From: a virus
DNA: 64,000 bases
IMG/VR virus record: IMGVR_UViG_3300037149_000100
Reading direction: 5' to 3' (one strand)
Below, in pieces: positions 1 through 64,000 of the stretch. Numbering within the stretch: the stretch's first letter is position 1; each line of letters opens with the position of its first letter. A program made the translations under genes and the position numbers. The notes under the pieces were generated by a model. The model was not told the DNA's origin. It worked only from the letters and a program-made list of their open reading frames with translations, and did no database searches.

Positions 1-507
1 ATTTACATGATGGGGGATGCGATTAAATATCTTCGAAAGATGTATCCGGAGCAGGAGACTGCCATGGGGCTCACAACCGAAGACCCAGACGCTCCGAGTA
101 TTCTCAATAAAATCCAGCATGGAGTAGTTGACCAGGAAGAGGAAGAACTCGTTCAGAATGTTGAAATGCGTAAACTCCGTCATGCCTTTGACGAATGGTG
201 TACGCGAAAGCTTCGTCCCGCCACGGCAAAACAAATAGTTCAGTTTTTTGACTTGATTATCATCTTTGATGGTGGCCAGGGAGAAATGCTGGATGAGTTT
301 GCCTCTCGTTCTGGGGTAAGTCGTGCGAGAGCCAATCAACTTCTTTACCACGAACTACCCCGATACCTACGTCAATTTTCTAGTTCTCCGGAAGGGAAAG
401 GTTTCAGTCTTGCCAAGCGTATCCGCACCAAGATTGAGAATGAAAGGCATGAAGCCGAACTACCTGCGAGAGAGCCAGAACCAGAGCTTGCCCAATCAAC
501 CCCTTAA
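1..507 (+). CDS. 5'-truncated protein with sigma-70 region-4-like HTH (sigma-like transcription factor)
   Basis: Frame is open from position 1; EFASRSGVSRARANQL resembles region 4.2 E-x-G-x2-(L)GVSRERVRQ. Confidence 0.45.
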   Translation: MYMMGDAIKYLRKMYPEQETAMGLTTEDPDAPSILNKIQHGVVDQEEEELVQNVEMRKLRHAFDEWCTRKLRPATAKQIVQFFDLIIIFDGGQGEMLDEFASRSGVSRARANQLLYHELPRYLRQFSSSPEGKGFSLAKRIRTKIENERHEAELPAREPEPELAQSTP

Positions 508-525
508 TCCTTTGGAGGAAACCTC

Positions 526-996
526 ATGCGTGAGAAAAGAGAACTAGAAACCCCAGTAGTGGCTGCCAAACAGCCTGTTAAGTTTGCCCGATTCAAACAG
601 ATTGCCAATGAAGATCCGGCAGCCCTGTCGGATGCGCTTTGCGAATTGTCAGAAGCATTTTCCAGTATGGCTGAGGCTTCGGAAGCATTGATTGAAAACC
701 TTGATCTGACCCCAGCACCGAAGGAAGCATCCATTCGTGAAAAGGTCGCGGCTCGTAAGAAGTTCGCCACCATGCTGAAGAAGCTGGCCAACGAAGCTCC
801 TGAAAAGGTCGAAGAGGCCCTGAATGAGATTTATAATGCCGTTGATGAGGTGGCCCTTGCGATTGAGAACCTTTCTAGCAATTTGGGCTTTACCCTGGGT
901 GAAGTTTCGGAAGAGCCGGTTGGAGATGAAGAAGTGGTGGAAGTTACCGAGGAAGTCCCAGAGGCTGAGCCCTCTGAGGAAGAATTCCCAGCCTAA
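526..996 (+). CDS. acidic helical protein, candidate head scaffold/internal protein
   Basis: GGAGG RBS; duplicated helical block, Glu-rich tail, K-x-A motifs (KFA, KVAA, KLA). Confidence 0.4.
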   Translation: MREKRELETPVVAAKQPVKFARFKQIANEDPAALSDALCELSEAFSSMAEASEALIENLDLTPAPKEASIREKVAARKKFATMLKKLANEAPEKVEEALNEIYNAVDEVALAIENLSSNLGFTLGEVSEEPVGDEEVVEVTEEVPEAEPSEEEFPA

Positions 997-1010
997 CTAG
1001 CTAAAAAGTG

Positions 1011-1057
1011 AAATTAGAATGCGTGTAGGTAAAAAATGCCTTCACGCATTTTAATTT
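1011..1057 (+). terminator. 21-bp imperfect inverted repeat (terminator or processing hairpin)
   Basis: aaattagaatgcgtgtaggta / tgccttcacgcattttaattt, one mismatch, A-rich loop. Confidence 0.6.
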
Positions 1058-1094
1058 TAGAGTATTATATGGTAAGGATACGTGGAGAGAGCAG

Positions 1095-1784
1095 TTGGCA
1101 CCGAAGAGAAAGTATGAAAAGCAACCCTACGAGGTCGGAGTTTACGGGATACTAAATACCATTACAAACAAGTGGTACATTGGGTCTTCTATTGAGTTGT
1201 CAAGGAGATTCGGGCATCACCTGAGAGAACTGAGGAATGGGAAGCACCATTCTCTTAAGCTTCAACGTTCATTTGACAAATATGGCGAAGGGGCGTTTCA
1301 GTTCAAGATACTCTTGGTATGTGAAGCCAAAGATGTGGAAATGTTCGAAAACAGAGCCATCATAGCTTATGATTCTTACAAGAATGGGTATAATGTGGCT
1401 GCGGAAGCTAAGGGTGGGTTTATGCGCGGAAGAAAATGGCCAGAGGCTACGAAAGCCGCAAGGGTTGTTAGCATGTGTGGGCGACCCATGTCAGATAGTA
1501 ATAAAGCAAGTCAATCCGTGAGAAAGCTGGCAGAGTGGGCAGATCCTGCTACACATGAGGCCAGATCAATTAGTATGCGAAAGCCCAAGAGTCCGGAGGG
1601 TCGTGAAGCCATAATTCAGGGTTTAAAGAAACGTTATGAGTCTCCGGAAGCTCACAAAGCAACAGCCGAGGCGACAAGAAAAACGTGGGCTGAAAGACGC
1701 GAAAAATACGGTTCAACTGGTAGAAAACCAAAAAATAAAAACAGTCTAACTACTTCTGAGGAGGTGACTTACGGCGGAAAATAG
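1095..1784 (+). CDS. free-standing GIY-YIG homing endonuclease with NUMOD3-like basic tail
   Basis: GVYGILNTITNKWYIGSS, R..H, E, GYN catalytic signature; basic repeats at C-terminus. Confidence 0.9.
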   Translation: MAPKRKYEKQPYEVGVYGILNTITNKWYIGSSIELSRRFGHHLRELRNGKHHSLKLQRSFDKYGEGAFQFKILLVCEAKDVEMFENRAIIAYDSYKNGYNVAAEAKGGFMRGRKWPEATKAARVVSMCGRPMSDSNKASQSVRKLAEWADPATHEARSISMRKPKSPEGREAIIQGLKKRYESPEAHKATAEATRKTWAERREKYGSTGRKPKNKNSLTTSEEVTYGGK

Positions 1785-1818
1785 TCCTTATTTCGAGTCA
1801 ATTGTAGCATCGAGAGCG

Positions 1819-11546: not shown

Positions 11547-11585
11547 AAATCAAAACTTCCTCCCCCTATTGAGAGAGGGAGGCGT

Positions 11586-12482: not shown

Positions 12483-12512
12483 TATACGGTTTCACTGGGT
12501 TGTGGGTATAAT
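12483..12512 (+). promoter_or_regulatory. early-type promoter TATACG-N18-TATAAT
   Basis: Same geometry recurs at 28192, 54582, 59608, 63217, 63864. Confidence 0.65.
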
Positions 12513-12538: not shown

Positions 12539-13351
12539 TTGACAGATTCTTTTGTTTTCTCTTCAAAAATGCTAGGACACGGCTCGGATGCCGTTCCTGA
12601 ATACGAAGGTGAACCGTTCACAGGAGACGGAAAGCACTTCATCGGTCAGGACGGATTTGTCGTTCCGGCAGGCTTCATCGAGTTCTTCGAACGCTACCCC
12701 GTATACGTCCGGAACTGGGTGTCGAAGAAACTCCGCAAGTGCAGCACTCATCCAGATGTGGAGGACTGGACGCAGACGCTGCTAACGCACTTGTACCAGC
12801 TTCACCACGGTCGCACCATCAAGGGTACCAAGGGGGAGGAGGATCGTGAGATTGGGGGAACCCTGTACAAGCTGGGATTCACCGATGTGATTCACGCTTT
12901 CAACCCATGGGCTCAGCACGGTGCTTCGGCCCGTAGGTTTTTCAATTTCGTCAACACTTGTCTTACCAACAAATACATCAGTCTTCGATCCAAGTACGGC
13001 AAGGACGCGACCAACCACTCGCTGTTCAGTCTCGACTCCCCCACCCCCATCCAGGGCATGGACGAGTCCAACGGCCCGATTAGCCGTGAATACCTGTTGA
13101 TGGACCGCTCCACCCTCTATCGGGATCAGGTGGCTGAGAATCGTCCCCTCACCGCTGATGATGTGTTCATCCAGCAGTTCAGGGATTTCGTGGAGCGAAA
13201 GGATCCGGAATTGCTTCCCCTGGTCAGTGCGATCATGAACAAGGATAAGGTGGATGAGATTCTTGAAGTTCTGGGTTATGACCAGAACCGCTACCTCCGT
13301 GACCGGAAGAAACTGATTCGACTGTCCAAGTCGTTTCAGGCAGGAGACTAG
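12539..13351 (+). CDS. phage-encoded RNA polymerase sigma factor (sigma70 family, regions 2 and 4)
   Basis: ERYPVYVRNW...DVEDWTQ...FNP...FFNFVNTCLTNKYI..R.K...SLDSP (region 2); VDEILEVLGYDQNRYLRDRKKL (region 4); AGGAGG RBS. Confidence 0.72.
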   Translation: MTDSFVFSSKMLGHGSDAVPEYEGEPFTGDGKHFIGQDGFVVPAGFIEFFERYPVYVRNWVSKKLRKCSTHPDVEDWTQTLLTHLYQLHHGRTIKGTKGEEDREIGGTLYKLGFTDVIHAFNPWAQHGASARRFFNFVNTCLTNKYISLRSKYGKDATNHSLFSLDSPTPIQGMDESNGPISREYLLMDRSTLYRDQVAENRPLTADDVFIQQFRDFVERKDPELLPLVSAIMNKDKVDEILEVLGYDQNRYLRDRKKLIRLSKSFQAGD

Positions 13352-14313: not shown

Positions 14314-14427
14314 GGTGTCGATGACCTGGGACCACGGCTCCCATGCCTCACGGCGGGTTATCCCATGGGTAGTAGGTTGGGCTAACCTCCCAATTTGCGG
14401 AGCGGTTCGAATCCGTTGGCACCCTCA
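14314..14427 (+). ncRNA. tRNA-like structured RNA (non-canonical)
   Basis: Terminal stem ggtgtc/ggcacc, canonical T-arm agcgg-TTCGAAT-ccgtt, about 80 nt of internal hairpins, no standard D or anticodon arm. Confidence 0.55.
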
Positions 14428-14468
14428 GAGTAATATGGTGTAACTAGTGGCCATTAAGGATCATTCAA

Positions 14469-14807: not shown

Positions 14808-15430
14808 GTGAAGAAGATTTTGAATTTGGTGACAAGCTACCCTTTCTGGATGATGAGATTCACCCCGATAGGTGGTTAAGGGCTAGGACCGAAATTGATC
14901 ATGTTTCCCTTCTTGAAGAATTCATAAAGAAGCCCATTACGGGGAACGTGATAAATTGCCCTCTGGGGACTCACTCAGATTCCACACCCTCATTCAATAT
15001 CTACCGGAACACCAATTCGTCCCATTGTTTCGGTTGCCCTGGGACCACGAAAGAACAATACAACGACAACGTTACGCTGGTCGCCAAGTGGTTTAGCATC
15101 AACAAAGTTGCAGCCCTGCAATGGCTGGAGAAGCACTTCAAGCTCCCTCCCATCGCTGGGCAAGCGGCTGAGCCTGAAGAGGAAGATGAAACAGATGAAG
15201 AGCCAGCCAACCCCTTCACCGTGAAAGATTTGGCACCAGCCTTCCTCGCTCTTGCCCCCACCCTGATTGAAACGGTGGGGGATGCGAAGTATTTGATTAA
15301 GAAATACTTCCTAGCCGAACATCTGGAGAATCCGCTACTTTTGGCCCAGGTTCTCGGACGGGCAAGGTTGGAGAGTATTAGACTATCAGGACACGTGACG
15401 AATGAAGGAACAGGAAGAGCAGTTAAGTGA
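14804..15430 (+). CDS. primase CHC2 zinc-binding domain protein
   Basis: CPLGTHSDSTPSFNIY...HCFGC; no TOPRIM domain. Confidence 0.8.
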   Translation: MSEEDFEFGDKLPFLDDEIHPDRWLRARTEIDHVSLLEEFIKKPITGNVINCPLGTHSDSTPSFNIYRNTNSSHCFGCPGTTKEQYNDNVTLVAKWFSINKVAALQWLEKHFKLPPIAGQAAEPEEEDETDEEPANPFTVKDLAPAFLALAPTLIETVGDAKYLIKKYFLAEHLENPLLLAQVLGRARLESIRLSGHVTNEGTGRAVK

Positions 15431-19228: not shown

Positions 19229-19272
19229 GAAAAATGGACTTTTCCTCCCTTTCGTAGGGAGTTTGGTGGTGT

Positions 19273-27164: not shown

Positions 27165-27172
27165 GAGTAATA
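27165..27172 (+). promoter_or_regulatory. GAGTAWTA motif (putative phage-sigma promoter), here with a leaderless start
   Basis: One of at least 13 + strand copies; ATG 6 nt downstream with no SD. Confidence 0.6.
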
Positions 27173-28181: not shown

Positions 28182-28273
28182 AAAATGAGCCTATACGAAT
28201 TGCCGATGCGGCGGGTATAATAGCTGTAGTGGCAGTTTTGCTGGCCGCTCACTTCCTCCTGCATTGGATCTGA
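28178..28273 (+). CDS. 31-aa single-TM peptide
   Basis: GGAG RBS; MKNEPIRIADAAGIIAVVAVLLAAHFLLHWI; contains an early-type promoter. Confidence 0.45.
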   Translation: MKNEPIRIADAAGIIAVVAVLLAAHFLLHWI

Positions 28274-29445: not shown

Positions 29446-30174
29446 ATGACCTTCTATTGGCGAGACGAGTGGTGGAACAAAGACCTGAATGAGTTGAGGT
29501 CCAGAACAGAGAAGCTATATGAGAAAATAGGTCGGGACATGTGGCAAGTCACGGCTGAAAAAATGATTGCACTTCGAGGCTGGAAAGTTAAGGAGTCTGA
29601 GGTTATTCCAGTCCTTCAGGAATTGGGGGTGTATTACGTCCCCAAGAAAATGGTACCCGGCCCCCTGTATGTGTTCCCCAAGGTAGACGCCGCAGGACAC
29701 GTGACCTCCGCTCAGACTAAACCCCTCCATGAACTGTTTGGCCCCGGCAAGTACCACACGCTGGGGGTGAGTCAGAAAGTCTTCCTGGGACCTACCTGGA
29801 TAGGTAACTCAGATGCAACCCTGGAGAAGATTCTTAGACTGCACTCTGTCACCCTGGTAGAGGGTCCGTTTGATTTAGTAGCCGCAAAGATACTCGCACC
29901 CAATTTGCCTATCATGTCTTCGCTTACAAAATCTGTTGGCGATAAGCACATGGCTTATCTTAAAATACTGGGAGTGAAACGCCTCTACCTGCTGTTTGAT
30001 CATGATGAGGCGGGAGAGAAATCCAAAATAATTCTTCAGAAAGTCCTTGACATTAAGGTAGAGGCGATTGGGGAATGCCCAGGAGATGACCCATCTGGTG
30101 CGTTGAAAACGGTGGGTACAAAACTGGCTCTCCGTCGAGTATTAAAGACCATAGAAGAGGAACATGATGATTGA
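29446..30174 (+). CDS. TOPRIM-domain primase catalytic subunit
   Basis: LVEGPFD, LFDHDEAG, GDDP. Confidence 0.8.
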   Translation: MTFYWRDEWWNKDLNELRSRTEKLYEKIGRDMWQVTAEKMIALRGWKVKESEVIPVLQELGVYYVPKKMVPGPLYVFPKVDAAGHVTSAQTKPLHELFGPGKYHTLGVSQKVFLGPTWIGNSDATLEKILRLHSVTLVEGPFDLVAAKILAPNLPIMSSLTKSVGDKHMAYLKILGVKRLYLLFDHDEAGEKSKIILQKVLDIKVEAIGECPGDDPSGALKTVGTKLALRRVLKTIEEEHDD

Positions 30175-32023: not shown

Positions 32024-33037
32024 TTGAGTTTCTGGACCCCGGTATCGTTGAACCAAATCGTGGGCAACGCTAGATCATTGGAGTTGCTCAGGGCAATCCT
32101 GGAGAACCGAGACCGTGCTCCCTCTTCCTTTGTATTCGATGGAGCGAATGGAGTTGGAAAGAACACCATCGCTAGGTTGTTTTTCCAGGGCATGTTCCCT
32201 GGTGAGAAGCCGAGGGTAGTTCAGCCTGAGTTCTTCTCACAAACATTGCAGCAAGACGATCTACAGGAGTGTCCCTGCATCGTTTGGGACCACGCAGAAC
32301 GCCTCACCGTTGAGCAAGCGGATCAGCTCTGTGCTTATCTGGACAGGTCTGATGTGAAGTCGGTGTTCATCTTTCTGTGCGTCAACTACAACAAGGTGCA
32401 TAAGGGTTTACGAGCCCGAGCCCTGCGGATTCCCTGTTTAAAGCCAAGTCGGGCGGATCTGACAGGTCTGCTGGGCTCCATTTGTGCTAGTCATCATTTG
32501 AACTTTGAACTTGAAGCTCTAGATATGATTGCTTCTCGGACTGCTGATATCCCCTCACGGGCTATTCTCGATCTTCAGGCCATTTCTGTGTTGGGAAATA
32601 TAGCGGTTGAAACGGTGCTTAAACTTCAAACCAATATTGAAGAACAGGCCATCCAGATTTTAACTCATATCGATGACCCTGACATCATGAAACTAGCTGA
32701 TTCGATTAAGGATGCACACCCCATAGAGGAGTTTATTGACACTTTGTTCGAAGTGTACTCTACCGCTTTTTATGATAATACGAAATCTTTTGGGATTATT
32801 GCTGAGAAACTGAGTAATTATAAAAGAGTGGGAGACATCTTCATCAAGTGGAAAGCTGCCACCTCCCTCCCCCCGTCTGCTCTTTTTATTCTCATAAAAG
32901 AACTCGTGGACTCAAGAAAAATGGTGGAAACCCCTATCATTATTTCTTCCATCAAGAAGGAAATCACACGAACCCCCCCTATTCAGCCAACGGATACCTG
33001 GAAAAAGATAGTTTCTGAAATCGAGAAAAATAAGTGA
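32024..33037 (+). CDS. clamp-loader (DnaX/RFC-like) AAA+ subunit, degenerate Walker B
   Basis: P.SLNQIVGN, GANGVGKNT, WDHAERLT, LRARA in place of SRC. Confidence 0.75.
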   Translation: MSFWTPVSLNQIVGNARSLELLRAILENRDRAPSSFVFDGANGVGKNTIARLFFQGMFPGEKPRVVQPEFFSQTLQQDDLQECPCIVWDHAERLTVEQADQLCAYLDRSDVKSVFIFLCVNYNKVHKGLRARALRIPCLKPSRADLTGLLGSICASHHLNFELEALDMIASRTADIPSRAILDLQAISVLGNIAVETVLKLQTNIEEQAIQILTHIDDPDIMKLADSIKDAHPIEEFIDTLFEVYSTAFYDNTKSFGIIAEKLSNYKRVGDIFIKWKAATSLPPSALFILIKELVDSRKMVETPIIISSIKKEITRTPPIQPTDTWKKIVSEIEKNK

Positions 33038-34131
33038 TATTACAATACGGTGATATAAAAAAGCTCAAAGGTCTCAAGTGGTATATCCTTGAGGTCAGAT
33101 CAGAGCGAACAGTGGAAAATGTGATTCGCCGGGTTGGTAAGACCATGCCCACAATTTTCAAAGATGGTGGATCCTGCGAGGTGTTCGTCCCTATTGAGGA
33201 CCGAGATCTCAACTTGTTCAGCCTGTCAACCTCTTCCTACGTATTCTTGCGCTCTGATCGAAAGAAAGAGTTGCAAAAGTTTAAAGGGGTCACGGGTGTG
33301 GTGGGGATCCTTTGTGAAGGAGAGCAGCAACGCATCGACAAGGCTTTGATGGTAGAGGATGACTACGTTCAGGAGCTAATCAAAACGACAGAAGAGAAAT
33401 TCATGAAGAGCCCAGAATCCATTCAGGTAGGCTCTTTCGTTCGTATTCTTGATGGTCTGGATAAGGGGTTCTGCGGACACGTATCTCACATAGATCGGGG
33501 TTATGCCCTGATTAGGGTAGAGCTTAAAACGAGACAGATGTTCATTGATACCCCCCTTCATAATCTCAAGGATCTGAGCTTTGTTCCCTCTCACTCCAGA
33601 GTGTTCTATTACTCTGACCTAGTGGATGAGTATGTGAAGGAGTATAGTGACGAAGCCATCATGACTCTAACCAAGGATTTGAAGTTCGTTATGGAAACGG
33701 TTGAACCTGCCCCAACGGATGAACCGGATGAAAAGAAGGTCAAGTACGGTAGGCAGAAGACTGTAACCGCTATGACAAAGAAACTGATATTCAGTGGAGT
33801 AAAGGACCCAAAAATCATTATTAAAGAGACATTGGCAGCCATTGAGTCCAGTGATATCAAAAAACCAAAGAGTGCGTTTATCTTTTACTCAATCCTTAAG
33901 CAGGCCATCATGGAGACCCTGTTCAAGGATGATACGAGAATCAAAACATACAAAGATGTGGTCAAGTATTACGGGGACTCCTACCGCTTTTCCCCAAAAA
34001 TGATCGCTGAATTGGATGAGCATTCTGTTCTCCCTCCGAAAAGTGAAACTTCAGATAAATCGAATCAACATTCCACAGTAATAAAAATTAGACTGACCAA
34101 GGAGTCAAAATGCCCAACACCACCGGAGTAG
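33034..34131 (+). CDS. NusG/RfaH-family transcription factor with C-terminal extension
   Basis: NGN: WYILEV, EVFVP, SYVFL, GVVGIL; KOW: IQVGSFVRILDGLDKGFCGHV. Confidence 0.8.
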   Translation: MILQYGDIKKLKGLKWYILEVRSERTVENVIRRVGKTMPTIFKDGGSCEVFVPIEDRDLNLFSLSTSSYVFLRSDRKKELQKFKGVTGVVGILCEGEQQRIDKALMVEDDYVQELIKTTEEKFMKSPESIQVGSFVRILDGLDKGFCGHVSHIDRGYALIRVELKTRQMFIDTPLHNLKDLSFVPSHSRVFYYSDLVDEYVKEYSDEAIMTLTKDLKFVMETVEPAPTDEPDEKKVKYGRQKTVTAMTKKLIFSGVKDPKIIIKETLAAIESSDIKKPKSAFIFYSILKQAIMETLFKDDTRIKTYKDVVKYYGDSYRFSPKMIAELDEHSVLPPKSETSDKSNQHSTVIKIRLTKESKCPTPPE

Positions 34132-37046: not shown

Positions 37047-37085
37047 CAAAACACAGTATTAGTAGATCAGGTAGAAGGAGTTTGG

Positions 37086-37319: not shown

Positions 37320-37380
37320 CCGAGTAATACATAACATACCAGCGGAATCCTCCGCACCCATTCACTCAAAGGAGAGTCTT

Positions 37381-37654: not shown

Positions 37655-37692
37655 GTTGTGCGACTTTTTCTCCCTCCTGTAGAGGGGACTTT

Positions 37693-39130: not shown

Positions 39131-39284
39131 AGATATCGAAGATCAGATGGACACGGCGATTGGCCAGAAAGACCACAAAGAGGTTAAGAAGCATCGCCAT
39201 GGAATCAGCAAACATGCAGAGTCCAGCGTCAAACTGCGCCTCTCGGATGAAGTGGAGGAACCCCCAACCTGGAAATACGAGTAA
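39105..39284 (+). CDS. small charged protein
   Basis: GGAGGAG RBS. Confidence 0.5.
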   Translation: MTVKPKKVEDIEDQMDTAIGQKDHKEVKKHRHGISKHAESSVKLRLSDEVEEPPTWKYE

Positions 39285-39292
39285 TAAGTAAG

Positions 39293-41248
39293 GTGAGGGT
39301 CGGCGTGGACGAACAGTGTCCCCTAGTTACACCGTATACCGAGAATGAAGGCATCCCTCAGAAGATGCTGGAGTTGCTCTACCGTATTCGAAAGCATGAT
39401 CCGGAAGAGGGGCCGATACCAGTCCCCATTCCGGCTTGTTTTCGTGAAGTCTCACTGACTCAGCATAAGCCAGTTAAACTGAAGAACTTCCAGACCCAGA
39501 TGGTTGCTCATTTGATAAAGATGCACCGATTCATCAATGGCGATGGGGTGGGTCTGGGTAAGTCGATATCCGCAATTGCTGCATCGGCTTATCTGCATGA
39601 GAAGCATGGGTGTAAAATCCTGGTTATGGGCACCAAGTCCACCACTTATCAGTGGAAGACGGAGGGGTTTGACGAATTCACTACCCTACGGACTCATGTG
39701 GTTACTGACACATACAACAAGCTGAAAGGCAGCCCAGCAAGACTTGCCCAAATTCGAGATTTCTTGGAAAATGACTTGTGCGATGTCCTGATTTGTAAAT
39801 ACACCTCCCTGGTGGGCAGGACTAAACCCCTAGAAGGTGAGTTTGATGAGAATGGCTACCCCATAGAGAAGGGACAACGCGAGGAAATAAGCCCAGAGGT
39901 GCAGGAGCTTTTAAACATCGTTCAGCCCCATGGGGAAAATTTGATACTGATTTGTGATGAGGCTCAGAAATTCAAGGCCACTACGACCCAGATTCGCAGA
40001 ATGATTCTTCAGTTACAAACCAGGGTGGGTAGGGTTTGGGCAATGACTGCTACGGTCATTCAGAATAGCTTGGATGAATTTTACAGTATTGCCAGTGCGA
40101 TTGGGATCCGACCTTTTGGGGGAATGTCCAAATTCAGAGATCATTTCTGCAAATATCAAATGACTTACATTGGTAATGGGAGGCAGAAGCCCTCTCTGGT
40201 GGGTTACCGCAATCTCAAAGAGTTCAAGATAGGGATGAGACCGTTCTATTTGGGGCGGTCTCAGGCTCAGGTAAAGGAACCACTCCCTAAGTTGACCACC
40301 CTTTACCACCCCATTGACCTGGATGCAAGACAGATTAAGATGTTTGAAGATATTAAAAGCGGGAAGCTAATACTCCCTCCCTCTGTTCATAAGGTAGCTG
40401 GGGAAATGGTTGAAAAGGACCGGGACCCCAGTAGCATGATGACTCAACTCTCTGTTCTCCAATTGATATCAAACCATCCTTGCCTGATTGATCCCTCTGA
40501 TAAAAAGGCGTTTTTCACTAAATCCCTCAGTCCAAAAGAAGATGCGTTGCTGGAACTCTTGGATGGAGAGCTAGCTGGAGAGAAGGTCTTAATCTTCACT
40601 AAATCGCGTAAATGGATTGACCGATTTGAGTATCTCTGTAAGAACGGCCACTTCACTGATCGTAAATTCTTACGAATCACTGGGGCCGAAGATGAGAAAC
40701 AACGAGACATTAATAAACGACTCTTTCAAACCAACCCCGATTATGACATGATGTTCATCAATACTGCTATCATGGAGGGGGCAAATCTTCAACAAGCCGC
40801 GCACATGATACTCTTGGATGTTCCATTCGGGTTTGGTGCGTTAATTCAACTAGTGGGGCGAATGCTCAGAATGTCCAGCCCTCACTCGGCTTGCACCCTC
40901 CACATTACCCTCGCAAAGGGCACGATTGATGAGTATACGATTGATGTGCTACGGGGTAAAAAAGGTGTATTTGAAGTCATTCTTGGAGAGTCCCATTCGG
41001 CGGGACTTCTGGACTCGGGGAACGATTTGGACCTATCGAGTGGGATGGAGACGTTGAACGACGATAAGGAGTTCAGAGAGCTTCTGACCGCTCATGTGAG
41101 AAAGTCGAAAATGGGGGATTTCCTAAACGGGAAGCTGATTGCCGCTGCCGCCAGTGAGGGCGAAGATTATGTGATGAGCTTCGAAAAAGATCCCAAAGAG
41201 AGTATTAAGAACAAGAAGAAATCATTCGAGTTTTCTGAGAAATGGTGA
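39293..41248 (+). CDS. SNF2-family SF2 helicase/ATPase
   Basis: GDGVGLGKS, CDEAQK, TAT..QN, EGANLQ, QLVGRMLR. Confidence 0.9.
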   Translation: MRVGVDEQCPLVTPYTENEGIPQKMLELLYRIRKHDPEEGPIPVPIPACFREVSLTQHKPVKLKNFQTQMVAHLIKMHRFINGDGVGLGKSISAIAASAYLHEKHGCKILVMGTKSTTYQWKTEGFDEFTTLRTHVVTDTYNKLKGSPARLAQIRDFLENDLCDVLICKYTSLVGRTKPLEGEFDENGYPIEKGQREEISPEVQELLNIVQPHGENLILICDEAQKFKATTTQIRRMILQLQTRVGRVWAMTATVIQNSLDEFYSIASAIGIRPFGGMSKFRDHFCKYQMTYIGNGRQKPSLVGYRNLKEFKIGMRPFYLGRSQAQVKEPLPKLTTLYHPIDLDARQIKMFEDIKSGKLILPPSVHKVAGEMVEKDRDPSSMMTQLSVLQLISNHPCLIDPSDKKAFFTKSLSPKEDALLELLDGELAGEKVLIFTKSRKWIDRFEYLCKNGHFTDRKFLRITGAEDEKQRDINKRLFQTNPDYDMMFINTAIMEGANLQQAAHMILLDVPFGFGALIQLVGRMLRMSSPHSACTLHITLAKGTIDEYTIDVLRGKKGVFEVILGESHSAGLLDSGNDLDLSSGMETLNDDKEFRELLTAHVRKSKMGDFLNGKLIAAAASEGEDYVMSFEKDPKESIKNKKKSFEFSEKW

Positions 41249-42058: not shown

Positions 42059-42359
42059 GGTCGGAGATATGGACTATGGACGAGGGTCTGAACGTTTTGT
42101 TTCGCTACGTGGAGAGGTCCCTGAAGGTGAAGAGGGCATCCCAATCGACAACTACGATGATATCCTAACCAAAGTCCTGGATCTCCAATTAGAGGCTTGG
42201 GAAGCGGTGCAGGGCAGTAGGTATGTGGGAGGAGTCGTGAAGGCCCCACTGTTCAAAGAACTGATCGCCACGGCCCGAAAACGCACAAAACAAATGAAGC
42301 AATTTTTGATCGAGAGAGGCGAAGTAGATGCTACCGATATTGAATCAACTGAAAGCTGA
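42018..42359 (+). CDS. hypothetical protein
   Basis: GGAG RBS before TTG 42018. Confidence 0.5.
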   Translation: MSSMTVTAVMVSLKVGDMDYGRGSERFVSLRGEVPEGEEGIPIDNYDDILTKVLDLQLEAWEAVQGSRYVGGVVKAPLFKELIATARKRTKQMKQFLIERGEVDATDIESTES

Positions 42360-43749: not shown

Positions 43750-43778
43750 GTATCAATTTAGGTAGCAAGGAGCATCAT

Positions 43779-44591
43779 ATGGCGAACAAGCCAAAGTTTG
43801 ACGAAGACGAAGAGCTAGACCTCAAGCCCGGTCAGAAAGCCCCCAAAGGCTCTGCGGCTGGACCCGCTGGAACCAAGAGAGCCACACTGGAGAATGAGGA
43901 AGACCTCGATTGTGACTGGGGTGATACGGAACTGATGAAGAAGAAGGACCCAATGCCACGGGTCAGGCCAGAAAAGGGCAAGGCGGTTCGCTTCGCCATC
44001 CTCCCCTTCATCAAGCCCAAGAAGGGTTTCAACCACTACATCGACAAGAAGGGCACTTATCGCTGCCTCTCCACTGAGGATAGCGAAGGCATTTGCTGCA
44101 CCTCCGGGCTGGCTGGCAACGCCAACCTCGCCATCGTTGCACTAGTCGTGAAATACACCAACTGCGACCCCAAGACCGGCAAATACGGTCTGGACCGGGA
44201 CGGTCGGAAGATCGTGGACACTGAGTGGGAGTTGGGCCATGTTAGTCTCAGCCGCACCAACTACACCGCTATTAACCGTATGATGGAAGACGAAGATGGT
44301 GCCACTGGCACCCCTGAGACGGTCTATGACTTTGACATCATTATGACTCATAACGAGGCCACTGGCATTGGTTACACCCTCACCCGTGCATCCCGCACTC
44401 CCCGTTACCGCAAGGATCCAGAGATGGTTAAGGCTATCGAAGCAGAGGCCACTGAGAAGGGGCTCCTGGACGGCAAGTTGCTCACCGGACGGCTTGGCCG
44501 CAAGATCAACGCTATCGAGTGGAAGGCCCTGCTCTCCGGCCTCACCGGAGCCAATGATGATGATGATGCTTCGGACAATAGTGACCTGTAA
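43779..44591 (+). CDS. single-stranded DNA-binding protein (gp32-like)
   Basis: VRFAILP, HY..C..CC, acidic tail; strong RBS, followed by terminator; next to recA. Confidence 0.65.
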   Translation: MANKPKFDEDEELDLKPGQKAPKGSAAGPAGTKRATLENEEDLDCDWGDTELMKKKDPMPRVRPEKGKAVRFAILPFIKPKKGFNHYIDKKGTYRCLSTEDSEGICCTSGLAGNANLAIVALVVKYTNCDPKTGKYGLDRDGRKIVDTEWELGHVSLSRTNYTAINRMMEDEDGATGTPETVYDFDIIMTHNEATGIGYTLTRASRTPRYRKDPEMVKAIEAEATEKGLLDGKLLTGRLGRKINAIEWKALLSGLTGANDDDDASDNSDL

Positions 44592-44675: not shown

Positions 44676-45500
44676 GTGGCCCCACGTAAGCCGAAGAAAA
44701 CGTTCGCTGAAAAAATAACCTTCCCCTCCAAGGAGCCGGAGATAACACATTGGATGGTGCTGGGGCTGGACCCATCCTTGAGCCGCACTGGCTATGCACT
44801 TAGCCTGGATGGGCAGTGGATTGAAATCGGGTCACTGAAACCTGATGATTCATCCCTTCCGATTTGGGTTAGATCAAAAATGATCGCCGGAACAATAACT
44901 GAGCGACTTTATGAAGCTATCCAACCCACCCTCAAGCAGGCTCCCAAGGAGCTTGAATCTGGGGGTTATGGGTATGGGTTGTTGGTGTGCATGGAGGTTC
45001 CAACCCCTAGAAATGACTTCCTTAATATCGTCTCAAAGGCCATTCATGCCGATCTTCTCCCTCGACTTCCTTCCCTGTTTTCCTCTGTTCACGTTCTCCA
45101 AATTAATGCAGCTACGATGAGATCCAATATGGGGCTCACAGCAACCGGAGATAACAAGTGGGAGAATGTTCGCAAGAGTCAAGAGTTCGCGGACTCCAAG
45201 GTATACCCAGGCATCGATTCGGATTCATGTGATGCAATCCTATTCTCGAAATATGGTCATATGATAGCTGACCTCCTCTCTCCAGAGATGTTGGTAGGTG
45301 AGTCCCCAATGCTGCTAAGCCTCTGTGATAACACCCCAGTAGTGAAGGGTAAGGGTAAGAGAGCCAAAATCGTGACCAAGGGGATCCTCCATAATCCTGC
45401 ATATTGGTACACCTACACCCCAACCGAATACAGTATTAGCTTAAAAGACGCGACCGTTCCTCCGAAGAAGCGGCTGCAAAAAATCATCATAACCTTCTAA
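44676..45500 (+). CDS. RuvC-like Holliday junction resolvase
   Basis: LGLDPSLSRTGYA, CMEVP, DSCDA. Confidence 0.8.
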   Translation: MAPRKPKKTFAEKITFPSKEPEITHWMVLGLDPSLSRTGYALSLDGQWIEIGSLKPDDSSLPIWVRSKMIAGTITERLYEAIQPTLKQAPKELESGGYGYGLLVCMEVPTPRNDFLNIVSKAIHADLLPRLPSLFSSVHVLQINAATMRSNMGLTATGDNKWENVRKSQEFADSKVYPGIDSDSCDAILFSKYGHMIADLLSPEMLVGESPMLLSLCDNTPVVKGKGKRAKIVTKGILHNPAYWYTYTPTEYSISLKDATVPPKKRLQKIIITF

Positions 45501-54575: not shown

Positions 54576-54627
54576 AAAACGTATCTGAATCAGCCTCCCA
54601 CCGAGTATAATATGGTAGGAGGCTCTG

Positions 54628-55035: not shown

Positions 55036-57225
55036 ATGGCAGAAGATAACAGACCATTTGAGGAAGCTGGCAAGGGCCTCATCATCAGCACCAATAACGA
55101 GCTGATTAACGCTCGCCACGCATATTATGCCCAAGCCCGCCCGATCATGACCGATGCGGAGTATGATCGGATGGAGCAGCAGCTATATGATATGGTGAAG
55201 GGGCTTCCCCAGTTCCGCTCCCTCGCCACCATTCTGACCACCGTTGGCTCTGACATGGTGAACAGCGGGGGTCGGATCAAGCACCGGACCCCCATGTTGA
55301 GTCTGGATAAGACCTACGATTTCGCAGAGCTTACCAGTTGGCTCGAACAGTTCCCCGGTCAACAATTCGTGATTGAACCGAAGGTTGATGGCTGCTCGTG
55401 CTCCACAATCTATATCAATCGCAAACTCATCAAAGCGGTAACCCGTGGTGACGGGCTGTTCGGTGAGGATGTGACGAAGCAGATGGCTGCAAGTGGCGCG
55501 GTTCCACTGACCTTACCGGAAGAGTTCTACCCAGAGACCCCCGTGGAAATCAGGGGAGAGGTGTTCATTGCCGTTTCCCAGTTTGACAAGTTAAACAAGG
55601 AATTGGAAGCTGAGGGTGAGAAGCCGTATGCCTCGCCTCGCAATCTTGCTGCCGGTTCGATGAAGCTGTTGGACCTTGAAGCAGTTCGGCGGCGGGGCCT
55701 ACGCATGTTCGTATGGGAGGTGAACGGCATCCCTCAAGACTACCTGAGCAAACGCTCCGCCTCCCTGGACTACTGTCATCAGGCCATCCAATACGTGACC
55801 CGCACGAACCCCTGCTTCCCTCAATCCATCCTGAGCGTCTGCTGTGATCCGCAGGGAGTGGTGGATGCGATTGATAATCAAATCCGCAAAGAGCGGGAGA
55901 TTGTCTGGCTAGGTGGCTTGGGTATGCATACCGATGGGGTGGTCATTAAGCTGGTTAGCCCACAGGCCCGCAAGGAAGCGGGTTTGGGCACACGAACACC
56001 GCACTGGGGTCTCGCATGGAAATACCCCTCTGAGAAGAAGGGAACGGTCCTGAAGGATGTGGTATGGCAGACCGGTCGAACCGGAAGCCTCACTCCCGTT
56101 GGTATCCTCGATCCCATCAATATTGGTGGAGCGATGGTCAGCAGGGTAAATCTGAATAATTATTCTTTCATAACCGAATTGGGAATTGGTATCGGTGATG
56201 AAGTTTTGATAAAGCGTGGAGGGGAGGTGATCCCTGTGTGCAGTGGGATTAGCCTAAAATCCCCCACTTCCATTCTCATTCCTGAACCAACTGTGTGTGC
56301 TTGCGGAGCACCAATCATTAGTGGAATTAACCCCAAATCCGGTGTGCTGACTCACTGGTGCGATAACTTTGAATGCTCCGAGCAATTGAAGGCTAAGCTC
56401 TGCTATGTGGCGGATCGCTCTGTTCTGGAGATTGATGAACTCGGCCCTGAACTATCCACCAAGCTGGTTGAAGAAGATTTTGTCACCACCTTCTCCGACC
56501 TGATGGAGTTCTCTAACAGCATCATCACTGGTCTGGAGAAGAGCAAGTCTGAAGCAGTCTCTCTCAAACTTACTGGTTTGGGTTTTAGTGCTGCCCAGAT
56601 CATCAAGATGTGCAAATCTCTAGAAACTGTGAAGACCCGTGAGTGGGACCGATGGTTGGCAAGCCTTGAAATTCCAGGTATTGGCAGGGTAATGAGTAAG
56701 GGACTGGCCACTCTGTGCCGACTCCAACCGGATGATATGCCTCGTCTCAGGGATATCCTCACCAAAGCTTTGAATGGTGAGAAGATTGACGGTATCGGAG
56801 ATGTGAAGAAAACTGAGGTGCTGTCCTATTTTGCCACGCATGGTCAATATTTCGATGAAGAGGTCCAGGCGCTCTACGATGCGGGGGTCAGGCCCAAGGC
56901 TTTGATTCAGGCAGCCGTAGCGGGCGAGCAGCCCTTGGCTGGCTATGTGGTTTGCATCACCGGGGAGTTCTACAGTTTCGGTGAGCGAGAACATCTGCAA
57001 AAATGCCTCGCTAGCATTGGGGCTACCATCAAGACCGGAGTGAGCAAGAAGCTGACCCATCTGATTGCCGGTGCTGAAGCGGGGCGCTCTAAGTTGGCTA
57101 AGGCGAAAGAGTTGAACATCCCGCTGCTCAGAGAAGATTGGCTGCGATTGGCATTTACGGATAATCACCTCCCACTGAAACCTAAGGGATTTGAAGCTGA
57201 AGATGCGGACGATGGATTCATCTGA
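55036..57225 (+). CDS. ligA: NAD+-dependent DNA ligase
   Basis: YY..P..TDAEYD, HRTPMLSLDK, EPKVDG, EIRGEV, DGVVIK, AWKY, Zn finger, BRCT. Confidence 0.95.
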   Translation: MAEDNRPFEEAGKGLIISTNNELINARHAYYAQARPIMTDAEYDRMEQQLYDMVKGLPQFRSLATILTTVGSDMVNSGGRIKHRTPMLSLDKTYDFAELTSWLEQFPGQQFVIEPKVDGCSCSTIYINRKLIKAVTRGDGLFGEDVTKQMAASGAVPLTLPEEFYPETPVEIRGEVFIAVSQFDKLNKELEAEGEKPYASPRNLAAGSMKLLDLEAVRRRGLRMFVWEVNGIPQDYLSKRSASLDYCHQAIQYVTRTNPCFPQSILSVCCDPQGVVDAIDNQIRKEREIVWLGGLGMHTDGVVIKLVSPQARKEAGLGTRTPHWGLAWKYPSEKKGTVLKDVVWQTGRTGSLTPVGILDPINIGGAMVSRVNLNNYSFITELGIGIGDEVLIKRGGEVIPVCSGISLKSPTSILIPEPTVCACGAPIISGINPKSGVLTHWCDNFECSEQLKAKLCYVADRSVLEIDELGPELSTKLVEEDFVTTFSDLMEFSNSIITGLEKSKSEAVSLKLTGLGFSAAQIIKMCKSLETVKTREWDRWLASLEIPGIGRVMSKGLATLCRLQPDDMPRLRDILTKALNGEKIDGIGDVKKTEVLSYFATHGQYFDEEVQALYDAGVRPKALIQAAVAGEQPLAGYVVCITGEFYSFGEREHLQKCLASIGATIKTGVSKKLTHLIAGAEAGRSKLAKAKELNIPLLREDWLRLAFTDNHLPLKPKGFEAEDADDGFI

Positions 57226-57250
57226 GTATTAGAAAGGAGGAGATGAGAAA

Positions 57251-57976: not shown

Positions 57977-58006
57977 TTGACAAGAAGATTCGATTCTGGC
58001 TATACT
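57977..58006 (+). promoter_or_regulatory. sigma70-type promoter TTGACA-N18-TATACT
   Basis: Near-consensus hexamers. Confidence 0.7.
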
Positions 58007-58875: not shown

Positions 58876-59610
58876 GTGTTGGAATTAAATAGAATCTATT
58901 GCGAGAATTGTTTGGACACGATGCTCAAGCTTCCGAAAGAATGTATAGATTTGGTAGTGACGAGCCCCCCTTATGATGATTTACGATGCTACAATGGCTA
59001 TAGCTTTGATTTTGAGGTAGTCGCTAAGGAGTTGTGTCGTATCCTGAAGCCTGGGGGGGTTATCGTTTGGATAGTGGGAGACTCGGTTCAGAAAGGTTCT
59101 GAGTCTCTTACGTCTTTCAAACAGGCTCTGTTCTTCAAGGGCCTAGGGCTAAATATCCATGACACAATGATTTATGAGAAGAACAGCCCCGCTTATCCAG
59201 CCAGAGCATGTGGCAACCGCTATACACAGATATTCGAATACATGTTCATCGTTACAAAGGGGAAGCCCAAGACGGTCAATTTGATTTGTGATAAACCAAA
59301 CAAGTGGGCTGGATGGAAGGATTTTTCAGGGAAACTGAAGAACCCCGTCCCTGATTTTTCTCCCCGCTGGAACATTTGGCGCTATGTGACGAGCTTCAAT
59401 GGGGTGAAGCACCCCGCTCCCTTTCCTGAAAGTCTTTGTAGGGATCACATTATCACATGGTCTAATCCAGACGATATTGTGTATGACCCTTTCATGGGGA
59501 GTGGAACCACAGCAAAGATGGCCCTGTTGGAGAAAAGAAAGTTTATCGGAAGCGAAATTTCAGAGGCATACTGTCTGATAGCTGAGGAACGAATTAAGAG
59601 TCTCCTATAG
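58876..59610 (+). CDS. beta-class amino DNA methyltransferase (probably N4-cytosine)
   Basis: TSPPY precedes HPAPFP and DPFMGSGTT. Confidence 0.9.
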   Translation: MLELNRIYCENCLDTMLKLPKECIDLVVTSPPYDDLRCYNGYSFDFEVVAKELCRILKPGGVIVWIVGDSVQKGSESLTSFKQALFFKGLGLNIHDTMIYEKNSPAYPARACGNRYTQIFEYMFIVTKGKPKTVNLICDKPNKWAGWKDFSGKLKNPVPDFSPRWNIWRYVTSFNGVKHPAPFPESLCRDHIITWSNPDDIVYDPFMGSGTTAKMALLEKRKFIGSEISEAYCLIAEERIKSLL

Positions 59611-59655
59611 ACAAACTGACCCAATTGAGAGTATAATAGAGAGAAGGAGATTCCG

Positions 59656-59877
59656 ATGTCTGACCCAAGTCTGGTCGCACTGCCCCCTGAGGAAAAGCTG
59701 AAGGCCATCGCTGAACGTCTCCGTGACAAGGTTGCGGATTGGGGGGAGTGGGGTGGCGAGATGTACTGCTACGATGATGGGGAAGCTGCCCGTGATGAAG
59801 GTAAGGCCCTGGCCTACGAACAGGCTGCAGACGACCTGGAATGGATACTTCGTGCGTTCGGATTGGAGAAATCATGA
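59656..59877 (+). CDS. hypothetical early protein
   Basis: AAGGAG RBS, TAGACA-N18-TATAAT upstream. Confidence 0.6.
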   Translation: MSDPSLVALPPEEKLKAIAERLRDKVADWGEWGGEMYCYDDGEAARDEGKALAYEQAADDLEWILRAFGLEKS

Positions 59878-60234: not shown

Positions 60235-60840
60235 ATGCCTACTGGATACACCGCAATGATTTTCGAAGGGGCGACTGCCAAACAGTTCGCCGCTAGATGC
60301 ATGAGGGCATTCGGAGTCGCAGCCCACATGCGAGATGACGACTGGGATAAGGAAGTTCCCCGCCAACTTCTTGAAGACGAAAGCACTTGGCATAAGGAGG
60401 GACTCGAAAAGGCCAAGGCTGAACTGGAAGCATGGCATCTGATGCCTATGATGGATAAAATCATTTGGGCTCAGACTACAATCGATGATCGGATTGCTCG
60501 TTATGAAGCTGAGATTGCTGAAAATGAGATGAACAATTTGAAGTTGAAGAAGACCTTCGTTCTGATTTCCCACATGGCAGTTCCGGAGGAACTCAACAAT
60601 TTTAAGAGCTTCATGCTGGAACAGCTTAGCACCAGCATGGAGGACTCATCCTACTACAGGGAGGAAATCCAGAAGTTTAAAGAGAAGACCCCTGAAAGTT
60701 TCATAGCAGATCATTCGGAACAATTGGGGTGGGTGGTGAAGAATCATCAGAAACGTTTGGAAGAAGGCAGGGAGTGTCTGGTGAAAAATAATCGTATTCT
60801 TGCTCTGATGTGGGCTGCGATTGACAGCATCCCTGAATAG
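60235..60840 (+). CDS. phage protein (MPTGYTA N-terminus)
   Basis: MPTGYTA..F...C.RAFG...MRD; AAGGAG RBS. Confidence 0.7.
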   Translation: MPTGYTAMIFEGATAKQFAARCMRAFGVAAHMRDDDWDKEVPRQLLEDESTWHKEGLEKAKAELEAWHLMPMMDKIIWAQTTIDDRIARYEAEIAENEMNNLKLKKTFVLISHMAVPEELNNFKSFMLEQLSTSMEDSSYYREEIQKFKEKTPESFIADHSEQLGWVVKNHQKRLEEGRECLVKNNRILALMWAAIDSIPE

Positions 60841-60865
60841 TGGTAAAATAAGACAAGGGGTAAGA

Positions 60866-62577: not shown

Positions 62578-62579
62578 GC

Positions 62580-62780
62580 ATGGCTGAGCGTCCAACCATC
62601 GCTGTGGATCTGGAGACCTGGAACATCCTTCTGGAGGAACGGGATTCCTGCTATCAGGCCCTTAAGGATATCATCCGACACCAGTGCTACGTGGCCGGAA
62701 CAATGGCCGTGCATAGTTCCGTTCTGGCTATAGCTCGTCCGGTCGTCCAGAAGATCGAGCAGAGGGCGGATGTGTCATGA
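62580..62780 (+). CDS. hypothetical protein
   Basis: Coupled ORF MAERPT. Confidence 0.5.
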   Translation: MAERPTIAVDLETWNILLEERDSCYQALKDIIRHQCYVAGTMAVHSSVLAIARPVVQKIEQRADVS

Positions 62781-63052
62781 TGCTCAGAGTCGTCAATCCC
62801 CATGACAGCCAGCATTTCCGAGACCGGCTGTTCACCCGGTTTGGCATCCTCCTGACCGCTTCTGACATGTGGCCTCTCCGAGACCAGCTTTGTACACTCA
62901 AGCCGGTCAAGATAGAAGATGGGGTTGCCACTTATCTGATGCGGCTTCAGGGCCGAGTCGTGTATGTGCTCTATGGTATCAAGCAGCAGAGGTTTATTAC
63001 CGCTACTCAACTGAATCACACCGAAACCATGGAGGCTGCGAGACTCAAATGA
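62777..63052 (+). CDS. hypothetical protein
   Basis: H...R...RFG motif; coupled. Confidence 0.55.
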   Translation: MMLRVVNPHDSQHFRDRLFTRFGILLTASDMWPLRDQLCTLKPVKIEDGVATYLMRLQGRVVYVLYGIKQQRFITATQLNHTETMEAARLK

Positions 63053-63213
63053 AAGCGAAATCCTACCAAGACTGGAAGATCCTGGGCTACCACGTTCGGA
63101 GGGGCGAGAAGGCCACCGGAGTAGACAGAGACGGCATTCCTACCTTCACCATCGATCAGACGGACCTGATTGAGGATGAGCTGGACTACCGGGACTGGCA
63201 CGGTCTGGATTAA
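63049..63213 (+). CDS. ArdC N-terminal-like mini protein
   Basis: SYQDWKILGYHVRRGEKA. Confidence 0.5.
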   Translation: MKAKSYQDWKILGYHVRRGEKATGVDRDGIPTFTIDQTDLIEDELDYRDWHGLD

Positions 63214-63261
63214 TTCTATACAAATCCCTCCAAAATCGGGTATAATAGGATAGGAGGGTCT

Positions 63262-63507
63262 ATGACCAAGACCGAAACCCTGGCCAAGCTGCTCACTGAG
63301 GTGGGCCTGAAGGAAGTGACGGACCAACACCGTACCAAGAAATACCGGGTCTTCACTTCCATGGAGGAAGGTAAGTTCTATTTCGTCGGAACCCATGGGG
63401 CTCTGCGGAAGGGAGCAAAGTCCACTGACAGCATTTCGCTGGATGCCGATGTCTACATCGACAAAATCAAGCGCATTCTCAAGAAACGAAAGGAAGATTC
63501 CGAATGA
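63262..63507 (+). CDS. basic hypothetical early protein
   Basis: TATACA-N18-TATAAT and AGGAGG upstream. Confidence 0.65.
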   Translation: MTKTETLAKLLTEVGLKEVTDQHRTKKYRVFTSMEEGKFYFVGTHGALRKGAKSTDSISLDADVYIDKIKRILKKRKEDSE

Positions 63508-63872
63508 AATTCTATCCCAACTCTTTTCTAGTCAAGAAACAAGGGCTCTCTGAGGAAGAAGTAAAGCTCATCGTGCTGAAGCATGAAGAGCGGGAAAAGG
63601 TCTTTGAGCAGATGGAGCGAATAGAGGATCCTCGTATGCTCCACTCTTTTGCCTCCCTGGTGGAACTGATTGAGTTTGAACTCCAGAAGCTTTGGAAGTT
63701 CCCCCAGGATGCCCAACAGCACTGCTGGTGGTTCCGGGTGCCCCACTGTCGCTGCCCTAAGCTGGACAATGCTGAGCGGGTCGGCACCGGCCAGCGAGTC
63801 ATCAACGGAGACTGCCCGGTGCATGGGTTCGAAGAGGAAGTTTCCCGCTTGCCGAATAAGCCCTTGTGCTAG
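63504..63872 (+). CDS. phage Cys/His protein
   Basis: LQKLW.F..D..H....CRCPKLDN...CPVHG. Confidence 0.65.
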   Translation: MKFYPNSFLVKKQGLSEEEVKLIVLKHEEREKVFEQMERIEDPRMLHSFASLVELIEFELQKLWKFPQDAQQHCWWFRVPHCRCPKLDNAERVGTGQRVINGDCPVHGFEEEVSRLPNKPLC

Positions 63873-63909
63873 AATCGCCAAATAGGGTATAATAAGGTGA
63901 GGAGTTAAA

Positions 63910-64000
63910 ATGCTTGAAGTTCAGAAGTTCCTTAAGAACGGCGGAACTCTTGAGATGCTCAAGGCAGACTACGGCATTAGTGCTCGTGTGAACGAGAGGC
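63910..64000 (+). CDS. 3'-truncated ORF, possible Rnl1-type RNA ligase N-terminus
   Basis: GAGGAG RBS; MLEVQKFL...LEML...YGI. Confidence 0.35.
   Translation, partial: MLEVQKFLKNGGTLEMLKADYGISARVNER

Follow-up and report, generated by a model that had tools for sequence, protein, structure and literature searches.

A divergent sigma-like protein and two promoter-like motif classes suggest a possible two-tier transcription program in a relative of the jumbo phage Tunturi_5

A 64,000-nucleotide stretch of DNA from a giant soil phage (hereafter the window; IMG/VR record IMGVR_UViG_3300037149_000100) carries two promoter-like motif classes, A and B, together with a gene for a divergent sigma-like protein (12539..13351, + strand). 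From the analysis of these elements we put at about even chances that the window encodes a two-tier transcription program of the phiEco32 type. The first-pass annotation had proposed three tiers, with three promoter classes laid over interleaved gene modules; that scheme reduces to a probable two-tier one, with no virion promoter class detectable. The window is the reverse strand of positions 41024-105023 in a linear record of 106,154 bp, which CheckV estimates to be 37% complete. Its GC content is ~49%, and nearly all genes, including all long ones, lie on the + strand. Among 50,697 phage genomes the sole related record is Tunturiibacter phage Tunturi_5 (PP885688), a 309-kb jumbo myovirus, and none is near-identical. 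The Acidobacteriota dominate in soils, yet transcription is not known to have been described for any of their phages.

Class A is bipartite and resembles a sigma70 promoter. We compared the counts of classes A, B and C, the last being the motif proposed for virion genes, with the expectation from shuffled sequence. The exact class A pattern TA[TG]AC[AG]-N17-19-TATAAT matches the + strand four times in the window and five times in the contig, with no match on the - strand and 0.00-0.03 expected from dinucleotide shuffles. This bears out the first proposed motif (TA[T/G]ACR-N18-TATAAT), one exact copy of which stands before the sigma-like gene. When the -10 box is relaxed, ~9 sites emerge, all on the + strand, all intergenic and every one with a spacer of 18, giving the consensus cTATAC(R)-N18-(G)GGTATAAT(A). 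On the + strand of the window, class A precedes the sigma-like gene (TATACG-N18-TATAAT, 12483..12512), a nucleotidyltransferase gene at 28275 (28192..28221), a 73-aa open reading frame (ORF) at 59656 (TAGACA-N18-TATAAT, 59608..59637) and an 81-aa ORF at 63262 (63217..63246). On the same strand, a class A-like site with a weak -35 (GAGTATAAT, 54581..54611) precedes small ORFs (54628) and the NAD ligase gene at 55036, and a class A -10 box with no clear -35 (GGGTATAAT, 63885..63893) precedes ORF 63910. Two further sites look like canonical promoters: TTGACA-N18-TATACT directly after a terminator (57977..58006, + strand) and TTGACA-N17-TAAAAT at 60821-60849. Upstream of the sigma-like gene, both class A boxes are kept in four relatives (L002 and L005-L007, with sigma-like proteins 75-96% identical) while the spacer differs, which amounts to a phylogenetic footprint.

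Class B is a single box. In the form GAGTAWTA it occurs 17 times in the window against 2.0 expected, again as first proposed, and the contig carries 35 copies of [G/C]AGTAWTA on its + strand and six on its - strand, where 3.2 are expected. Twenty of the 25 strict GAGTAWTA copies on the + strand lie no more than 51 nt upstream of an ORF start (ORFs of at least 40 aa), and the 8-mer with the strongest upstream enrichment is GAGTATTA. The distance from box to start codon is usually 16-22 nt and exactly 6 nt at two genes, those for an ATPase (27179) and a helicase (GTG at 39293). Downstream of the box, Shine-Dalgarno sequences peak at a distance of 8-10 nt, and the 7th nucleotide is preferentially A. 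No T is conserved at the sigma70 '-7' position, and no informative column upstream of the box marks a -35 element. An excess of TTTTCT upstream of class B was considered as a -35 and rejected, as its positions are loose and variable and it probably reflects terminator tails. A literature search on the motif 8-mers returned unrelated papers only.

Class B copies are spread along the + strand. The first (1060..1067) directly follows the terminator at 1049 and heads a unit running from the GIY-YIG gene at 1095 through TerL (9693) to 12469. Further copies precede ORF 14469 and the primase gene at 14804 (14428..14435); PolA (15373..15380, 21 nt before the gene and 21-22 nt in L002 and L005-L007); the ATPase gene (27165..27172, 6 nt before the ATG at 27179, a leaderless geometry); 30164 (30137..30144); the actin-like gene at 34110 (CAGTAATA, 34076..34083); 37086 (37054..37061, with additional copies at 37322, 38438 and 39010); and the helicase gene (39279..39286, 6 nt before the GTG). 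The box at 41200..41207 heads a unit from 41252 through 42328 to 43779, with the terminator at 44635 at its end; that at 45431..45438 lies 70 nt before the UvsX-like gene at 45509, with more copies at 51110 and 53530; and that at 57224..57231 precedes 57251, with another copy at 57848. Class B is also present before 30529 and the exonuclease-like gene at 30694 (30490-30497), before the clamp loader gene at 32024 (a weak form, AAGTAATA, at 31996), before 58062 and the DNA methyltransferase gene at 58876 (58037) and before 60235 (60205). Directly 5' of the box at 14428 we observed a stretch resembling a tRNA T-arm (GCGGAGCGGTTCGAATCCGTTGG, 14390-14427), where ARAGORN and Rfam call nothing; relative L007 has a similar hairpin, GGTTCGAATCC, at the matching position. 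Scans of the whole window for tRNAs (ARAGORN) and Rfam families gave no match in either case.

A 6-nt gap to start codons that lack a Shine-Dalgarno sequence recurs, as it should if the box covers roughly -14 to -7 and the first transcribed base is the A or G of the start codon. Class B could also be imagined to work in RNA, enhancing translation or marking a site of processing ahead of the Shine-Dalgarno sequence, for which its AU-richness and its fixed distance of ~8 nt from that sequence would speak. We regard this as hardly probable: against it stand the same leaderless sites, the several copies that directly follow terminators and the fixed spacing at which the Tunturi_5 version of the box is coupled to upstream DNA elements.

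Conservation of the box extends well beyond the window. The copy at 14428 has a counterpart downstream of the sigma gene in Tunturi_5 and in L009-L013. The copy upstream of PolA occupies the same position in the four relatives with sigma-like proteins 75-96% identical, and in Tunturi_5, L009, L010 and L012 a class B box downstream of the sigma gene stands 6 nt before a start codon. In Tunturi_5, G[G/A]GTATTA precedes the orthologues of the B-driven ATPase, helicase, primase and exonuclease genes; the ATPase orthologue gp14 has a GGGTATTA box, and the helicase orthologue gp94 has GGGTATTA 6 nt before its GTG. Across five sigma-bearing jumbo relatives, SRGTATTA exceeds its reversed control 3-15x (40/12, 44/13, 62/20, 11/2 and 61/4). 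We compared this with a likely host. A CRISPR array at the contig end (window-oriented contig coordinates 105,300-106,154, ~40.2 kb past window position 64000) comprises 11 identical 36-nt repeats (GTGTCATTAGCTTCGGTTAGAAGCTCACACAGTTAG) with spacers of ~36 nt, and one degenerate spacer pattern gave an exact match to an uncultured Holophagaceae metagenome-assembled genome, which we therefore take as the likely host type. In this 5.7-Mb genome SAGTAWTA is not enriched (47 against 76 in the control), and its density in the phage is ~47x higher.

Tunturi_5 itself (L028 and L029, 1-100,000) has two promoter-like classes. The first, [A/T tract]-c[AG]ATAAT-nnGGG-N~16-tGGGTATTAgc, comprises ~24 sites and contains the B-type box. 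The second is strictly bipartite, aaAGTCATCTTTGG-N13-ctGTAGGTTGa (in short form GTCATCTTTGG-N13-GTAGGTTG), comprises ~17 sites before accessory genes, often 5 nt before ATG, and is unrelated in sequence to class A. The Tunturi_5 genome paper mentions neither sigma factors nor promoters.

The candidate reader of class B is the 270-aa product of ORF 12539, which is probably a two-domain sigma factor, judging by its modelled fold and a profile match. It appears to consist of a sigma2-like domain with an insertion, a disordered linker and a sigma4-like domain. The AlphaFold (AF2) model has a pLDDT of 78 and shows two helical domains joined by the linker. The top Foldseek matches of this model are all sigma factors, with phiEco32 gp36 (9m7y_F) first at E 0.013. 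An unbiased alignment across 48,161 chains placed sigma4 domains first, second and third (Z 7.7, 7.5 and 7.4; rmsd 2.4-4.4 over 65-69 residues); SigI6 sigma2 aligns at Z 6.4 (rmsd 3.5 over 89 residues), and the list is almost purely sigma factors, many aligned over two domains in the order sigma2-linker-sigma4. By hhalign, a 58-sequence profile of the family matches region 2 of nine ECF-type sigmas of the likely host with 64% probability and E 6e-5, whereas a control with the NusG-like family described below gives E 0.62; a sigma2 domain is thereby supported moderately. The Tunturi_5 homologue, gp3 (34% identity), is annotated as a sigma factor. The family has 390 representatives (clusters at 50% identity) at E<=1e-3. 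The earlier assignment to the sigma70 family thus holds at the level of fold and profile, and not at that of domain libraries: ORF 12539, like each of 58 diverse family members, has no match in Pfam, PHROG or NCBIfam, including the models Sigma70_r2/r4 and sigma70-ECF at their curated cut-offs, and profile searches of PDB sequences with the family returned only sigma-H, at E 0.8.

Alternatively, phage factors could re-tune the host primary sigma to read class B, through sigma appropriation or a -35-independent switch, leaving the 12539 protein to serve other, for example late, promoters. T4 MotA/AsiA and the Thermus phage P23-45 re-tune the host holoenzyme in this manner. The TAWTA core does resemble a -10 hexamer, one class B site has TTGACG at 17-nt spacing, and the Tunturi_5 version, with its A/T-rich tract, TTnnGG-like box and extended -10 look, precedes early-type genes and the sigma gene. 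Set against this, class B lacks a T at the -7 equivalent and is not among the enriched signals of the likely host, one genome contains two distinct -10 consensus sequences without mixing, and the searches turned up no additional motif that a separate sigma could read; we hold this explanation to be a minority possibility. A phage-encoded RNA polymerase in the remaining 63% of the genome is a second candidate reader, as many jumbo phages encode their own polymerases and the contig holds only 37% of the genome. However, neither Tunturi_5 nor two complete relatives with the same motif match the beta-like RNA polymerase family PF00562, and although very divergent polymerases could escape such a search, we think this very unlikely. 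A search for T7-type polymerases in the complete relatives also found no match, but its own control matched nothing, so it is uninformative.

In the program that we favour, class A (TATACR-N18-GGGTATAAT) and the two canonical TTGACA promoters would be used by the host holoenzyme at the start of infection and would drive small accessory genes and the 12539 sigma-like protein. This protein would then displace the host sigma on host core RNA polymerase and steer the enzyme to the single class B box, [G/C]AGTAWTA, located around -14 to -7, with transcription starting ~7 nt downstream to yield leaderless or very short-leader mRNAs. Long, terminator-poor units would begin at class B sites and carry replication genes ahead of virion genes, and the NusG-like protein may hold these units processive. 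Long B-headed units would explain the interleaved gene order without a third promoter class. We infer the assignment of protein to motif, the start sites and the timing. The route first proposed, from host RNA polymerase to a phage sigma to later motifs, is thereby upheld as far as a sigma70-like promoter before the sigma-like gene and a phage-private -10-type motif are concerned; a late class and host reading of class A do not share that support.

Several observations weigh against this program. A perfect TATAAT with a 4/6 match at -35 should be usable by a primary sigma, yet in the likely host TTGACA-N16-18-TANNNT is enriched (63 against 20 in the control) and TATACR-N16-18-TANNNT is not (14 against 36), so that we only infer reading of class A by host RNA polymerase; class A may depend on a phage factor as well. 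The B-type box of Tunturi_5, GGGTATTA, with its conserved upstream elements, also occurs ~190 nt before the sigma gene, which implies either autoregulation or a class read there by the host. The 12539 protein has a sigma4-like domain, yet class B has no -35 box. Membership of the sigma family hangs on fold Z scores that are middling and on a single profile comparison with a probability of 64%, and none of 58 diverse family members has a Pfam sigma match. Finally, the analysis covers only 37% of the genome.

Three further genes bear on this question, the first two of which had been named as encoding region-4-like proteins. The gene P0166, whose 3' part lies at 1..507 (+ strand), starts 290-398 nt before the window and encodes 265-301 aa with two helical domains. 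Its C-terminal part matches sigma region 4 by hhalign (probability 72%, E 3e-5); in fold comparison sigma4 reaches Z 5.5-6.1, yet non-sigma helical proteins score higher (Z 7.0) and sigma2 reaches only Z 4.8. It has no Pfam match, and in Tunturi_5 it corresponds to the N-terminal portion of a 668-aa protein with the annotation 'virion structural protein'. Of the two proteins only P0166, with a start outside the window, has some support, for a sigma4-like C-terminus; ORF 1819 offers weak hints only. This ORF (P0167, 1819..2520, + strand) has weak helix-turn-helix hints and an unsupported relation to sigma factors: NCBIfam ECF sigma gives E 0.042 and hhalign E 0.12, its nearest Atlas cluster carries Sigma70_r4 (score 0.91), and its Tunturi_5 homologue, gp346, is annotated as 'exonuclease'.

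P0166 allows other distributions of labour among the phage proteins. The assignment might be reversed or doubled, with class A read by a phage sigma-like protein through sigma4 and class B by P0166 or another factor. The lack of host enrichment of TATACR, the class A spacing fixed at 18, the sigma4-like parts in both 12539 and P0166 and the strictly bipartite second class of Tunturi_5 before accessory genes would all fit. However, the sigma gene itself lies behind class A and another entry point would be needed, class A with its perfect -10 should already work with host sigma on general grounds, and a sigma2 part of P0166 is not established; we consider this arrangement unlikely. It is quite unlikely, in our estimate, that both phage-private classes are read by phage sigma-like proteins rather than host sigma, with a P0166-type protein delivered in the virion acting on class A, by way of the unusual TATACR box, to make 12539, which in turn would act on class B. 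If true, this would be a host-sigma-independent sigma cascade across a whole clade of Acidobacteriota jumbo phages.

The third gene (33034..34131, + strand), translationally coupled to the clamp loader gene at 32024, probably encodes a NusG-like protein, in line with the paralogue first proposed there. NGN- and KOW-like sequence appears to make up the first ~180 aa, followed by an extension of ~185 aa. Residues 14-179 align with positions 13-177 of the 179 in a PHROG 'transcription antiterminator' profile (E 5.5e-4). Below cut-off, residues 66-165 match the NCBIfam families UpxY (2.6e-5) and nusG (1.7e-4), and Pfam KOW4_SPT5 gives 4e-4. Against the PDB, the family profile finds KOW domains of L24 (0.003), Spt5 and NusG at residues 115-183. 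The protein is 41.5% identical to Tunturi gp25, and the pairing of a clamp loader with a 'transcription antiterminator' is also present in Tunturi_5.

The third motif class, proposed for virion and envelope genes, was not recovered. ACT-N9-13-[AG]GGAG occurs 12 times on the + and 17 times on the - strand against 15.3 expected, and ACT-N11-R5 52 times against 51.9. ACTTTT has a marginal upstream excess (12/31, p 6e-6 before correction over 4096 hexamers). A de novo search upstream of the 61 genes that lack both A and B gave no word that withstands correction; the marginal words there are CCCTTA (7 against 0.7), ACTTTT (7 against 0.97) and TGTCCA, which derives from a cassette array. Three candidates were set aside: CCCTT(T)A shows no strand bias (27 + and 26 -), AGGTAG near starts (7/29) looks like a Shine-Dalgarno variant, and TAGGT[AT]G, the -10 of the second Tunturi_5 class, is not enriched here.

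None of the virion genes (TerL, portal, tail, fibre and 42328) has a separate box; they follow B sites, and no terminator intervenes. In Tunturi_5, too, the major head gene belongs to a unit that starts with a GAGTATTA site. The window has just four convincing intergenic terminators, at 1049, 37650, 44635 and 57969. Placing virion genes in long B-headed units without terminators yields two tiers rather than three. Sorting of motifs by gene function, also proposed at first, is moderately supported. In the window a B-type box stands directly at 8/16 replication or nucleotide-metabolism genes and 0/5 virion genes (Fisher p 0.11); pooled with Tunturi_5 the figures are 17/41 and 0-1/13 (p 0.005-0.04).

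Two kinds of hairpin were also seen. The Shine-Dalgarno sequences of the portal gene and some others pair with an upstream CCTCC-type anti-Shine-Dalgarno sequence in a short hairpin (19236-19272, 11555-11585 and 37663-37692), and that of the portal gene is kept in L002 and L005-L007 with a G-U change. In many Tunturi_5 promoters (L028 and L029) the anti-Shine-Dalgarno sequence is placed after the upstream box and before the GGGTATTA box, so the Shine-Dalgarno sequence would be hidden in read-through transcripts only. The arrangement recalls the T4 genes e and soc. Separately, L009-L014 share a terminator-like hairpin ~40-80 nt upstream of TerL, its loop always containing ATCTACGC, and then a CCC(C)TT(T)A-N-GTAGA stretch adjoining the TerL start codon.

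We derived the gene order from PHROG and Pfam searches plus tblastn against Tunturi_5. Starting on the + strand at the positions given are genes for a GIY-YIG homing endonuclease (1095-1784), TerL (9693), the sigma-like protein (12539), primase (14804), PolA, a family A DNA polymerase (15402), portal (19273), a minor tail protein (21588), tail fibre (25440), ATPase (27179), nucleotidyltransferase (28275), clamp loader (32024), the NusG-like protein (33034), an actin-like protein (34110) and helicase (39305, with a GTG start at 39293). Also found were genes for primase-like (29446), exonuclease-like (30694), Tunturi gp91-like (42328), UvsX-like recombinase (45509), exonuclease (47289), SbcD-like (50293), thymidylate synthase (52323), NAD ligase (55036), DNA methyltransferase (58876) and deoxyribonucleotidase (61464) proteins. 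Head, tail and replication genes are thus interleaved as first reported, with TerL, sigma-like, primase, PolA, portal, tail, fibre, clamp loader and helicase genes intermixed. The TerL / sigma / primase / polymerase / portal / tail order is identical in Tunturi_5, and the interleaving is therefore real and ancestral to the group.

Some neighbouring features deserve mention in their own right. The actin-like gene (34110-35195; Pfam Volactin 2.9e-47, weak MreB/FtsA) directly follows the NusG-like gene and is preceded by a separate class B box; the first 100 kb of Tunturi_5 yielded no counterpart. The GIY-YIG gene lies between the P0166 operon and ORF 1819, and since the homologous Tunturi_5 genes gp345 and gp346 adjoin, it looks like an insertion. 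At the start of the window-oriented contig, a stretch of ~330 nt that stops ~800 nt short of window position 1 contains about three tandem repeats of a ~78/156-nt unit; the opening 82 nt reappear at position 157.

What these data add is a previously unannotated sigma-like family and a clade-wide promoter box; the scheme itself is of the known phiEco32 kind. The signals are concrete, with two promoter-like classes here, two in the cultivable Tunturi_5 and the core box GTATTA across the clade. They come with a large sigma-like family that no domain library recognises, and they make the temporal program of these phages directly testable.

The closest parallel is phiEco32, in which sigma70 serves the early genes, while middle and late genes depend on gp36, composed of sigma2-like and sigma4-like parts, which recognises one AATGTA box at -11.5 (PMC12276001). 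The phage described here similarly sets sigma70-type class A and canonical sites beside a single-box class B without a -35, and gp36 (9m7y_F) is the top Foldseek match of the 12539 model. It differs in that no sequence similarity to gp36 is detectable, the box is [G/C]AGTAWTA and no gp79-like partner was identified; phiEco32 is moreover a 77-kb podovirus, whereas this is a ~300-kb jumbo myovirus related to Acidobacteriota phages, known here from sequence. T4 late transcription (gp55, gp33 and the sliding clamp, acting on TATAAATA at -13 to -6) likewise uses an 8-bp A/T-rich box with no -35 and a start few nucleotides downstream, and here too a clamp loader gene lies beside one for a transcription-factor-like protein (32024/33034), a link to the clamp being pure speculation. 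However, T4 gp55 has no sigma4 domain, whereas the 12539 model carries a sigma4-like C-terminal domain and so is not a sigma2-only protein; class B precedes replication genes and not virion genes only, and no gp33-like protein was identified. The successive sigmas of SPO1 (gp28, then gp33/34) find a possible echo in the two sigma-like proteins 12539 and P0166, but only two promoter classes are detectable here and P0166 is supported for a sigma4-like part only. Tunturi_5 shares the interleaved order, homologues of the sigma-like (34%) and NusG-like (41.5%) proteins, PolA, portal and helicase, and two strong promoter-like classes, one of them G[G/A]GTATTA at orthologous genes with the same 6-nt spacing; it differs in the conserved upstream elements of its B-type class and in a second class unlike class A.

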